Source: Acidobacteriota bacterium
GTDB lineage: Bacteria > Acidobacteriota > UBA890 > WLXD01
Direction: 5' to 3'
Length of the DNA: 64,000 nucleotides
Assembly (NCBI GenBank): GCA_965248695.1
Contig: CBDFKD010000002.1
Location: 1,216,001 to 1,280,000, forward strand
Shown: in pieces, positions 52,385-54,614 of the stretch
Layout: every line of letters begins with the position of its first letter
Position numbering within the stretch: position 1 is the first letter of the stretch
Made by a program: the position numbers and the translations under genes
The notes under the pieces: model-generated
What the model was told of the DNA's origin: nothing
Databases searched by the model: none
Seen by the model: only the letters and a program-made list of their open reading frames with translations

Positions 52385-52413
52385 GTGAGCAACGGGCTGG
52401 TCGCAAGGTCCCG
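52385..52413 (+). pseudogene. Original 5' end of the FG-GAP gene, separated by transposon insertion
   Basis: GAGAGG SD, GTG AGC AAC GGG CTG GTC GCA AGG TCC CG; joins in frame to 54608 onward after removing the element and one TSD. Confidence 0.75.
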
Positions 52414-52422
52414 GGTAGTGTC

Positions 52423-53253
52423 CTAATTTGAACCTGCTTCGTCGATCAGCCGACCGATTGACCAAAGCGAGCCCGTCACCCCGGCTTCCATAGCGGGGGT
52501 GACTCGCAGAGTCTGGTGGATGCGCACGAAGTTATAGTGAGCGAAGTGCAGCGCCACGGCCGCGCGCAGGTTCTCGACCTTCTTGCTGAACGCGTTTGTT
52601 AGGCGAGTAAATCTGCGCATGTTCATGCGCATGGTCAGGTTCTGCCGCTCGATGTGGCTGGTGCAGATCTTGTCTGGTGCTGGCTGGCCGACGATCGCCC
52701 TGCGACGGGTGCTCGTGACGTGCGGTGGGCCGTACCTACCCGGACCGATTGGCTCGGCTTCGTAGCACTTTACGATCTGACCGTAGTCGACGTACGGACC
52801 GAATGCCTGCTCGGTCGCTTCGACGTAGGCGGCCAGGGCGTCGGAGGAAAGCTGCACGCGGTTGGCGAGGCGCGAAGCGACATCGCCCATGAACGAGGTA
52901 GCGGTTTCTAGGTCGCGCTTGCCGACGCGAAAAGCTGGGACGATCTTCGATTCCGGGTCCAGCGCAACGAACGTCCAGAAGTCACCCAAGCAGCGCGGGT
53001 CATCGGAGAGCTTTAGGTGGCGCTGTTTCTTCCCGACATAGGCCCAGATCTCATCAACCTGAATCTGCTCGCAAGGAAGGTTCTGCATCCGGTCATCCAT
53101 CGCCGCCGCGCAACCGCTCCCGACGCGGACGAGCAACCGCATGATGGTGTCGCGGTGAACGCCGGTCATGCGCTCTGTCGCGCGAATCGAGCAACCCTCG
53201 ACCAAGCATCGGATGACCGCTTCTTGCTTCTCTCGCTTCAGGACGTTAGCCAT
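52423..53253 (-). CDS. IS1-family single-ORF DDE transposase (HTH, no N-terminal Zn finger)
   Basis: [61 protein letters not shown] stop inside the TIR. Confidence 0.9.
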
Positions 53254-53277
53254 GTTGTTCTCCTTAGCATGGAGAAC

Positions 53278-53306
53278 AATCTAGCATACAGTCGGAGATT
53301 AGCCAA
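53278..53306 (-). promoter_or_regulatory. Putative sigma70 promoter of the transposase
   Basis: TTGGCT-17 bp-TAGATT with upstream TG; AAGGAG SD downstream. Confidence 0.5.
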
Positions 53307-53367
53307 CTTCCTGCTTGACTAAATTCGGGATTATATGCGAGATTAGTCTGGAAGTGGGGCGGACAAC

Positions 53368-53460
53368 GGAAGGTGACCCATTGGATGGTCCAGTAACGGG
53401 GTTTACACTCGGAGGGCTCGCTGTCACCGCAGCGAAGGGGTTCGACTCCCTCACCTTCCG
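53368..53460 (+). tRNA. Non-canonical tRNA-like gene (8/4 or 9/3 allo-tRNA type), putative anticodon UUA
   Basis: Acceptor GGAAGGTG(A)/(T)CACCTTCC plus discriminator G; D arm ATTGG-ATGGT-CCAGT; anticodon arm CGGG-GTTTACA-CTCG; long V arm TCGCTG..CAGCGA; T arm GGG-TTCGACT-CCC; no encoded CCA. Confidence 0.75.
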
Positions 53461-53513
53461 CTATCAGCATCCCATGGAAGGATAAGTGTAGCATCGACAG
53501 GAGGGCCTATCGA

Positions 53514-54293
53514 ATGGCGAAATCGCGTAGTCCTCGGAAGCCGTCAATTGACTTAGAGCGCGCAGTGGAGCTGGCCACGATACTTCACAGGCAGATTCTC
53601 AATCATTCTTCCGCCAAGGAAACCGTTCTGCAGCACTGGGGATACTCGCCGAAGAGCAGCAACGGGCTTGTGGCATTCGGAGCGTTGCGTCAGTTCGGAC
53701 TGATCGACCAGAGGCGCGGCCAAGACGCGAAACTTAGCCCCTTGGCTCTCGAGATTGTGCTGGATGAGCGGCCCGATTCTCCCGAACGCGACGAAGCTGT
53801 CTGTAGGGCAGCTTTGAATCCGATACTCCACCAGGAACTGTGGAGCAAGTACGCCGGTAAGCTACCTTCAGACGCTGAAATCAAGTTGTACTTGCAGCGT
53901 GACAAGAGCTTCACTCCGAAGGGTGCCGAAGATTTCATCAGCCAGTTTAGGGCAACAATCGCATATGCTAATCTGGACGCATCGGGCAACGGGGCCGAAG
54001 AAACAAGCCCCGAGCAACGGGAGCAAGACGAGTTGATCCCTTCCGAATCATCCGCAAACAGACAGCCCGCTACGCCACCGCGCGTGCCCCTAGAGGGCGT
54101 AGCGCAGATAGACCAGGCGACCTTCCCGCTCGATGAAGGGCCAGCGGTTCTGCAATGGCCAGCTGATCTCAGTCTCGCCAGCGTCGAAGAGTTCGAGGCC
54201 TGGCTTGATCTGGTGAAGAAGAAGGTCCGCCGTGCGTCAACAGCCCGTTCACGGCAGCCGGATACTGAGGATGACCGAAGTAGCGCCGACTGA
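53514..54293 (+). CDS. Transposon cargo protein of unknown function (possible winged helix)
   Basis: GGAGGG SD; RSPRKPSIDLERAV, GALRQFGLI; 259 aa. Confidence 0.8.
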   Translation: MAKSRSPRKPSIDLERAVELATILHRQILNHSSAKETVLQHWGYSPKSSNGLVAFGALRQFGLIDQRRGQDAKLSPLALEIVLDERPDSPERDEAVCRAALNPILHQELWSKYAGKLPSDAEIKLYLQRDKSFTPKGAEDFISQFRATIAYANLDASGNGAEETSPEQREQDELIPSESSANRQPATPPRVPLEGVAQIDQATFPLDEGPAVLQWPADLSLASVEEFEAWLDLVKKKVRRASTARSRQPDTEDDRSSAD

Positions 54294-54573
54294 GCTACAG
54301 CGCCACGTCGAGCGGCTGCACGGCTGCCACGCAGAGCACCAGAAGGCCGTAGCCGTCCGCGAGGAATTCCAGGGAGAGGTGGCTTGGGAAGGCGCGGTCC
54401 ATATCTACAGCCTCACGGACCATCCCTCAGCGACACGCTGCTACGCGTGGTCATCGCCCGTAGAGGGCTCCGAGAATCGCCGCTTTTACGCTGTATTGCA
54501 CACGGAGAGGGTTGATTCTCCTGTGAAGGCCGTCCGGGCGGCGATCGTAAGCGACCACGGGTCGCAAGCCTGA
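54271..54573 (+). CDS. Small transposon cargo hypothetical protein
   Basis: Overlaps the upstream stop region; VERLHGC..WEGAVH..RCYAW..FYAVL..SPVKAVRAAI; ends next to the TIR. Confidence 0.75.
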   Translation: MTEVAPTELQRHVERLHGCHAEHQKAVAVREEFQGEVAWEGAVHIYSLTDHPSATRCYAWSSPVEGSENRRFYAVLHTERVDSPVKAVRAAIVSDHGSQA

Positions 54574-54614
54574 TTCCCGATTCAAATTAGGACACTACCA
54601 GGTCCCGCGGTGTC

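Follow-up and report, generated by a model that had tools for sequence, protein, structure and literature searches.

An intact IS1-family element from an Acidobacteriota bacterium with a 9/3 allo-tRNA-like RNA in its passenger slot

Insertion sequences (ISs) of the IS1 family have inverted repeats that start with GGT and produce target duplications of 8–9 bp; in classical IS1 a −1 frameshift links insA to insB', and InsA contains a zinc finger. In ISfinder, single-ORF, passenger-carrying members of the family go by the subgroup name ISMhu11. Other transposons, for example Tn7-like elements, carry defence genes as cargo. For passenger-carrying ISs the term 'tIS' is in use (PMC7986276). A second relevant system is that of the allo-tRNAs, which were first detected as near-misses of a search for the selenocysteine tRNA (tRNA-Sec). 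In their 9/3 forms the 12-bp acceptor branch is divided 9 + 3, the variable arm and the D stem are long, the D stem carries a tetraloop, the anticodon stem is extended to 6 bp, and position 73 is G or U (PMC5389517). Mukai et al. (2017) already suspected a link between allo-tRNAs and transposable elements, the most abundant allo-tRNAs being inactive in translation and vaguely linked to mobile elements (PMC5389517). Here we analyse a 64,000-nucleotide stretch of an Acidobacteriota bacterium (assembly GCA_965248695.1, contig CBDFKD010000002.1, positions 1,216,001 to 1,280,000 of the forward strand), referred to as the window, which holds an intact, recently moved insertion sequence of one IS1-family clade; between its ends lies an RNA of 9/3 allo-tRNA shape, followed by two open reading frames (ORFs), ORF2 and ORF3. 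The finding adds to two known kinds, passenger-carrying IS1 elements and allo-tRNAs.

A tRNA-like RNA within a bounded IS1-family element

The element occupies positions 52414–54599 (2186 bp), its ends and target duplication being perfect both by sequence reading and by a repeat finder, which stretches the terminal inverted repeat to 22 nt at 95%. The transposase is encoded on the minus strand, and the RNA, ORF2 (259 aa) and ORF3 (100 aa) on the plus strand, with the following features.

52406..52413, no strand: left target-site duplication AGGTCCCG, identical to 54600-54607 (8/8)
52414..52432, plus strand: left terminal inverted repeat GGTAGTGTCCTAATTTGAA, the first 16 nt of which are conserved across the family
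52423..53253, minus strand: IS1-family transposase, a single 276-aa ORF with a TAG stop inside the left repeat and a weak N-terminal helix-turn-helix
53255..53279, minus strand: transposase-leader hairpin, perfect over 9 bp (UUGUUCUCC / GGAGAACAA), from folding against shuffles
53305..53334, plus strand: putative promoter of the RNA–ORF2–ORF3 operon (TTGACT, 18 nt, GAGATT), from sequence reading
53368..53460, plus strand: 9/3 allo-tRNA-like RNA, 93 nt, from its cloverleaf fold, a covariance model and homologues
53514..54293, plus strand: ORF2, with two winged-helix-like modules (residues ~1-155), a disordered linker and a C-terminal β-hairpin and helix
54271..54573, plus strand: ORF3, the hallmark gene of the clade, overlapping the end of ORF2 by 23 nt and ending 7 bp before the right repeat
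54581..54599, minus strand: right terminal inverted repeat, the exact reverse complement of GGTAGTGTCCTAATTTGAA (19/19)
54600..54607, no strand: right target-site duplication AGGTCCCG, identical to the left copy

The RNA folds as a cloverleaf (−39.9 kcal/mol, z = −2.31), and only 1 of 200 shuffles folds as well. The single Rfam match in the region is tRNA-Sec (RF01852), which scores 28.8 bits where the gathering score is 47; with this score and an anticodon UUA instead of UCA the RNA falls outside that family, and ARAGORN makes no call at 53368-53460. The consensus of five aligned homologues, from which a covariance model was built, comprises a 9-bp acceptor stem, a 3-bp T stem, a variable arm of seven pairs and an anticodon stem of four. 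The model matches the RNA of the window and those of loci L010, L017 (identical to L020), L087, L089, L099 and L100, as well as a weaker, shorter form in L035. Across the eight homologues, 93% of the paired cells hold standard pairs and 12 of the 26 pairs show compensatory changes; the alignment was fitted to the model in a way that favours structure, and the margin is nonetheless large, since none of 500 shuffles reaches any of five measures and structures slid by 1–3 columns retain 46–54% pairing. Acceptor and T stems are 100% paired in the eight sequences (five and one compensatory pairs, respectively), and four of the seven variable-arm pairs are compensatory. Just three pairs of the D stem are conserved, and the four standard pairs of the anticodon stem are flanked by conserved A–A mismatches. 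The invariant parts are the GG of the D loop, the T loop GGUUCGAYUCC and the anticodon loop NUUUACA (GUUUACA in the window), in which the usual numbering gives an anticodon UUA, reading UAA, followed by C37 in all eight homologues. The last base is G (G73) in the seven long forms.

With the 9/3 allo-tRNAs this RNA shares the 9 + 3 acceptor branch, the long variable arm and G73, together with the weak resemblance to tRNA-Sec, an acidobacterial/soil origin and UUA at positions 34–36 (PMC5389517). The original prediction, which had found no described system for the RNA, therefore no longer holds on this point. The RNA nevertheless departs from the published forms: 9/3 allo-tRNAs include UAA readers, and the UUA members of the published table all have the loop CTTTAAA, with A37, whereas the loop here is NUUUACA with C37; the anticodon stem has four pairs and A–A mismatches where the published stem has six pairs; and the passages covered make no mention of a constant position upstream of ORF2 within an IS1 element (PMC5389517). 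As anticodon loops, CTTTACA and GTTTACA are absent from the supplementary table of that paper, two rows of which (368 and 595) have UUUACA as the variable-arm loop of 8/4 allo-tRNAs, which may be a coincidence (PMC5389517). Having the fold of the published class and a loop missing from its table, the RNA constitutes a subclass not contained there. Our confidence in the identification of the element and of the class of its RNA is high. The host genome also holds two genes called as tRNA-SeC (UCA) by ARAGORN (C2:4678307-4678404 and C2:5559422-5559519), one of which could be selC-like or a relative of allo-tRNAs.

The transposase matches Pfam family PF03400 (DDE_Tnp_IS1) at 37.1 bits (cut-off 24.1, E = 4.7e-9) and has at least 8000 relatives. 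Its score against the NCBIfam IS1 equivalog, 70.5 bits, is under the cut-off of 100, which makes it a divergent member of the family. Unlike classical IS1, the element has one uninterrupted 276-aa ORF in place of an InsA/InsB' frameshift pair, and the N terminus of the transposase shows no paired CxxC motifs and no zinc-finger cysteine pairs, so that the element fits the single-ORF, passenger-carrying subgroup of IS1. Its likeness to the 'tIS' lies in the IS1-type DDE domain, the GGT ends, the 8-bp duplication and the passengers between the ends. The leader of the transposase gene folds into a hairpin (−18.2 kcal/mol, z = −4.68, equalled by 0 of 200 shuffles) that sequesters the GGAG ribosome-binding site beside the AUG; judging from this sequence arrangement, it probably acts as a translational brake on the transposase.

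The element is inserted between an msrB gene (SelR, E = 2.9e-48) and a gene for an FG-GAP repeat protein, and the host genome contains this one full copy and a few fragments of other IS1 relatives. The sister species (genome G069) has a copy of 92% DNA identity on its contig C4; its msrB homologue lies on another contig (C9), which indicates that the element moved after the split of the two lineages. These observations agree with the original prediction as regards the intact IS1-family element with passenger content (37.1 bits to PF03400, GGT ends, 8-bp duplication) and its recent mobility; the perfect 19-bp repeats, the 8-bp duplication and the length of 2186 bp are likewise correct in every coordinate, and the ORF list confirms a leftward-reading transposase and an RNA–ORF–ORF unit ending 7 bp before the right repeat. 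Of the two traces of movement that were proposed for follow-up, another copy was found in G069 and an empty site was not: none of the four further genomes from the genus has a DNA match to the right flank, the match to the left flank ends at msrB, and the contigs of four sequencing runs contain no joint that skips 52414-54599. Elsewhere in the host genome, two IS end motifs stand back to back at C2:1393305-1393336 as a 32-bp bare end pair (0 and 1 mismatch), and solitary end-like motifs occur at C2:1402080 and C2:5219663. An 80-bp stretch at C2:5219337-5219416, 100% identical to part of the transposase gene of the element, adjoins relics of another, more distantly related IS1 copy (51% protein identity).

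ORF3 and the variable slots of the clade

The core of this clade consists of the transposase, the ends GGTAGTGTCCTAATTT and the 100-aa ORF3. The likely start of ORF3 is ATG 54271 and not GTG 54232, because its relatives have ~100 residues. A word-indexed search returns 126 relatives, and at least 549 JGI metagenome stretches encode one; the best 80 of these loci form an ORF3-centred set. An IS1 transposase of 59–85% identity lies upstream on the opposite strand in 26 of them, and many of the others are contigs too short to show one. With up to 3 mismatches allowed, the conserved 16-nt end GGTAGTGTCCTAATTT follows ORF3 in 58/80, at a median distance of 314 bp. In 25 loci both ends are found, and 21 of these have identical 8-bp duplications; a common end sequence on both sides, combined with duplications at this frequency, excludes chance. 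Eighteen of these 25 complete elements have a transposase, and the other seven are transposase-less mini-elements of 384–2664 bp that retain ORF3. Retention of ORF3 where the transposase is lost points to an accessory function in IS1 biology.

A second set was selected by the transposase, relatives of which occur at E ≤ 1e-60 in 50 of 401 genomes of the phylum (a tally that takes in the unpublished genome G152, on which no other result depends). It consists of the best 29 loci, with L128 left out, each covered to a reach of 1500 bp from the transposase. Where transposase identity is 52.3% or higher, 9 of 13 loci contain ORF3, and none of the 16 loci of lower identity does; in six of the nine it stands directly behind the transposase on the same strand. 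This tally identifies ORF3 as a clade-specific IS gene, not cargo. The original prediction had counted both ORFs as cargo; ORF3 is instead the signature gene of the clade, and the variable cargo slot of the element holds just the RNA and ORF2. The composition of the two sets counts against this assignment in two respects: the 80 loci were picked by ORF3, so its constancy there is by construction, and in the transposase-selected loci, the sole unbiased set, an ORF3 behind long cargo would escape the 1500-bp reach. Compared with the IS1 family at large, the elements differ in having an extra conserved gene close to the right end, a variable slot mostly occupied by defence-type genes, and transposase-less mini-elements that retain ORF3.

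The structure predicted for ORF3 (pLDDT 89.7) consists of a helix, four strands and a helix. Foldseek finds nothing at E ≤ 0.001 among solved structures, the best VIA structure match is a fragment of TraM (Z 6.2), so that no clear relative emerges, and a plasmid collection gives no match. ORF3-bearing elements are also present on predicted viral contigs of IMG/VR (L109-L113), among them a complete element of 4178 bp (L109) and a 790-bp mini-element (L110); on another of these contigs (L113) an RNA-like match of 35.2 bits adjoins ORF3.

The slot between the transposase and ORF3 differs from element to element. A census of the protein encoded directly upstream of ORF3 in 40 loci, scanned against Pfam, assigns 29 of the 40 to nuclease or ATPase types, mostly GmrSD, with the following distribution.

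GmrSD: 16/40 loci
AlbA_2/HATPase_c_4: 5/40 loci
AAA_21/AAA_15: 2/40 loci
RloB: 2/40 loci
SNase: 2/40 loci
AAA_14 + DUF4143: 1/40 loci
P63C: 1/40 loci
Host-like genes: 4/40 loci
No family: 7/40 loci

At least two of the four host-like cases (L026 and L086) have the left end directly before ORF3, which places the host-like genes outside the element. Ten of 16 slot proteins tested match PADLOC defence models (HEC-06/Orf5, HEC-04, AbiLii, PDC-S01, pAgo-associated and C3a212), and neither of the two tested slot proteins of the ORF2 family does; 5 of the 80 ORF3-selected loci, corresponding to four distinct elements, have a protein of that family in the slot. Most relatives (L018-L096) have another, smaller variable slot of ~200-480 bp after ORF3 and before the right end, which is empty in the element of the window. 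Each such slot holds one small ORF (62–157 aa), and the 39 ORFs, mostly unrelated to one another, fall into 29 clusters; several of those listed look hydrophobic. The first slot, with its restriction-type and abortive-infection-type genes, recalls the variable slot of Tn7-like elements, whereas the elements described here belong to the IS1 family, measure 0.4–4.3 kb and carry one or two cargo genes. Literature searches on passengers of IS1 or transporter ISs and on GmrSD cargo gave no description of such elements among the papers listed.

The putative RNA–ORF2–ORF3 operon and its possible functions

Across the loci compared, the RNA behaves as a recurrent passenger of the IS1 clade that is preferentially, yet not always, paired with ORF2. 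It lies directly upstream of ORF2 on the same strand in five of the seven distinct ORF2-bearing IS1 elements (window, L010, L017, L087 and L089), and the order RNA, ORF2, ORF3 is common to the four homologous elements and the window; the original prediction of a single unit, which depended on homologues carrying the RNA and the ORFs together, stands in this respect. RNA and ORF2 are 53 nt apart in the window, in L010 and in L017, and 49 nt apart in L089; in L087, at a contig edge, 6 nt separate the RNA from the first long ORF. At the place of the putative promoter, sister elements have TTGACA-N17-TATAAG, -TAGGAT or -TAAGGT, and TTGACA-type putative promoters precede the RNA by 20–60 nt in the elements with RNA and ORF2. 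A strict sigma-70 scan reports no site, including at 53305..53334, and there is no terminator-like site between RNA and ORF2 on the plus strand. The RNA occurs in 4 of the 80 ORF3-selected loci (three distinct elements), all with ORF2, and at high score in 4 of the 29 transposase-selected loci.

Three loci, L035:2797-2865(-), L066:2776-2844(-) and L042:1322-1389(-), have shorter tRNA-like folds of ~69 nt that precede the transposase start by 35–50 nt and lie on the strand of the transposase. The loop is GUUUACA in L035 and L066, which the RNA model scores at 33.6 and 23.4 bits, and CUUACAG in L042, which was found by motif only. In genome G300 a tRNA of the 7/5 type with a long variable arm, G73 and a GAU anticodon (L012:2447-2535(+); 54.8 bits to the Rfam tRNA model, 'tRNA-Ile' for ARAGORN) is separated by 220 bp from an ORF2 homologue on the opposite strand, in a locus with no IS1 transposase.

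ORF2 belongs to a very large yet unnamed family: a word-indexed search returns 16 relatives and an exhaustive profile search 7187 representative clusters at E ≤ 0.001 (2752 at E ≤ 1e-30), with no family match in Pfam, NCBIfam, PADLOC or PHROGs. The predicted structure (pLDDT 85.9) has a helical N-terminal domain that aligns over its whole extent to the DNA-recognition parts of FokI (Z 8.4, 152 residues, r.m.s.d. 3.9) and N.BspD6I (Z 8.1), and to BrxA (Z 7.5, 143 residues) and SspB (Z 6.7), and the first half of this domain aligns to MarR-type winged helices (Z 7-7.9); all of these Z scores lie within the range for which the tool warns of no more than a common arrangement, and the best Foldseek match has E = 0.014. 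We take from these scores a predicted nucleic-acid-binding double winged helix in the N-terminal domain, and nothing more. One weak match to ORF2 is present in the plasmid collection, no family match was obtained for ORF2 and ORF3 as a toxin–antitoxin pair, and a prediction of the ORF2–ORF3 complex scores 0.00, evidence neither way. The nearest named Atlas cluster is that of DUF5343 (score 0.90), carried by 42% of its members.

Our preferred interpretation, to which we assign a probability of about 0.4, is that the RNA may be a processed, non-decoding tRNA mimic within a defence-like cargo operon. Position 37 of tRNAs is almost always a purine, which matters most for A:U-rich codon pairing. 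A pyrimidine at this position, an all-A:U anticodon and a 4-bp anticodon stem with A–A mismatches should make the RNA a poor decoder, and it is for this reason that a tRNA mimic is proposed. The mimic is further favoured because the loop sequence is fixed in both the 9/3 and the short forms, because the genes of the element offer no UAA target and because the allo-tRNA(UAU) forms linked to transposons proved inactive when tested by Mukai et al. (PMC5389517). The stops of the three genes are TAG, TGA and TGA, they vary among sister elements, and none of the genes contains an in-frame TAA. Suppression by the RNA of the element's own stops was rejected on these grounds. A match of the RNA to a rare codon was rejected as well: GTA makes up 5 of the 12 valine codons of ORF3 in the window against 8% genome-wide, and in 84 ORF3 homologues it is not position-fixed, its share of valine codons being 18% in RNA-bearing loci and 13% in the rest.

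The mechanism that we envisage would start with a single promoter upstream of the RNA from which RNA, ORF2 and ORF3 are transcribed together. RNase P and a 3' nuclease would then release the RNA from the leader. Since it retains the serine identity marks, a long variable arm and G73 (PMC5389517), the RNA would probably be recognized by tRNA enzymes. It could serve as a decoy for, or a regulator of, tRNA-directed enzymes, or as an RNA partner of the nucleic-acid-binding ORF2, and the RNA–ORF2 pair would represent a defence-like or addiction-like cargo module akin to the nucleases and ATPases of sister elements.

Several observations weigh against a non-decoding mimic in a defence-like operon, in addition to the range in which the ORF2 Z scores fall. 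The three proteins of the window match no PADLOC-DB 2.0 family at E ≤ 1, and with neither ORF2 nor ORF3 matched the defence label is owed entirely to the company in the slot. Two ORF2-bearing IS1 elements (L077 and L014) have no match to the RNA model, and in two genomes (G016 and G064; loci L099 and L100, identical to L131 and L132) the RNA lies beside the transposase and ORF3 with no ORF2. Homologues of ORF2 outside IS1 are mostly devoid of the RNA, and among seven other genomes with ORF2 homologues G069 alone has it. The serine identity marks and the canonical T loop would fit a working tRNA equally well. In L099 and L100 themselves the transposase, ORF3 and an ORF of ~60-65 aa follow one another on one strand and the RNA converges on them; by eye, the translation of the small ORF reads as ribbon-helix-helix-like.

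The best-surviving alternative, which we regard as possible and rather unlikely, is that the RNA is a working, serine-charged ochre suppressor, perhaps a weak one, with which the element would spread low-level read-through of UAA (and, by wobble, of UAG), tolerated because UAA is rare in the host. TAA indeed ends only 215 of 2966 long ORFs in the host genome (7.2%), and the features of the L shape (GG in the D loop, T loop GGUUCGAYUCC) are conserved. In the published work, serine identity is assigned to the long variable arm and G73, 9/3 allo-tRNAs were active in E. coli translation, and 9/3 forms with a UUA anticodon are tabulated (PMC5389517). However, all eight homologues have C37 where these published UUA forms (CTTTAAA) have A37, the anticodon stem has four pairs, not six, and the transposon-linked allo-tRNA(UAU) was inactive (PMC5389517). 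TAG, moreover, ends 38.5% of the long ORFs, so that wobble reading would be costly, and a purine is usual at position 37 of tRNAs.

Less probable again is a purely cis-acting leader, in which an RNase P cut at the tRNA shape would set the 5' end or the stability of the ORF2–ORF3 mRNA, or insulate it from outside transcription, the freed RNA having no role. The spacing of 49–53 nt between RNA and ORF2 in four of the five elements that have both, despite ORF2 identities of 30–40%, would suit such a leader, as would the short folds with the same loop ahead of the transposase in L035 and L066. A leader, however, has no need for an invariant anticodon loop, for G73 or for a variable arm kept by four compensatory pairs, and the converging RNA of L099 and L100 heads no evident ORF2-like gene.

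Improbable, in our estimate, is a role in the transposon's own control, with the RNA as a private tRNA or RNA cofactor that tunes the synthesis or activity of the transposase or ORF3. The two genomes in which the RNA accompanies transposase and ORF3 in the absence of ORF2, and the tRNA-like folds in the transposase leaders of L035 and L066, speak for it; but most elements of both sets do without the RNA, no codon pattern matches it, as UUA reads a stop and the stops of the element vary, and the GTA idea failed. Chance capture of a decaying allo-tRNA pseudogene and unrelated ORFs between IS1 ends, which could appeal to the transposon-linked allo-tRNA of Edaphobacter C40 being called a pseudogene (PMC5389517) and to the silence of ARAGORN, is very improbable and already contradicted by the RNA covariation (compensatory changes in 12/26 pairs, fully paired acceptor and T stems) and by a gene order that recurs in four further distinct elements with ORF2 identity down to ~30%, all three ORFs being intact.

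Significance for allo-tRNAs and for small insertion sequences

Neither the NUUUACA subclass and its ORF2 operon, nor a clade with ORF3 as its hallmark, nor the slot for defence genes was found in the literature searched, which included, among supplements, that of PMC5389517. A bolder reading joins two claims, that the IS1 clade marked by ORF3 and GGTAGTGTCCTAATTT would be an undescribed miniature shuttle for anti-phage genes and that RNA and ORF2 would form a new tRNA-mimic module of defence or counter-defence, in which the RNA might act, for example, as a decoy for anticodon nucleases or in an RNA-guided or RNA-gated DNA binder; we consider this conjunction doubtful.

As this IS1 clade shows, insertion sequences of very small size can carry individual defence genes (GmrSD, AbiL-like, AAA_21 and others) among soil bacteria and into phage contigs. 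Allo-tRNAs have been known since 2017 without a settled natural role (PMC5389517), and one subclass of them can now be assigned a fixed position, in the 5' leader of an operon enclosed by the ends of an IS1 element. Together with the candidate partner protein and the unvarying loop motif, this position makes the role of an allo-tRNA testable at the bench. If the defence-module reading is true, it would provide the first function for transposon-linked allo-tRNAs.

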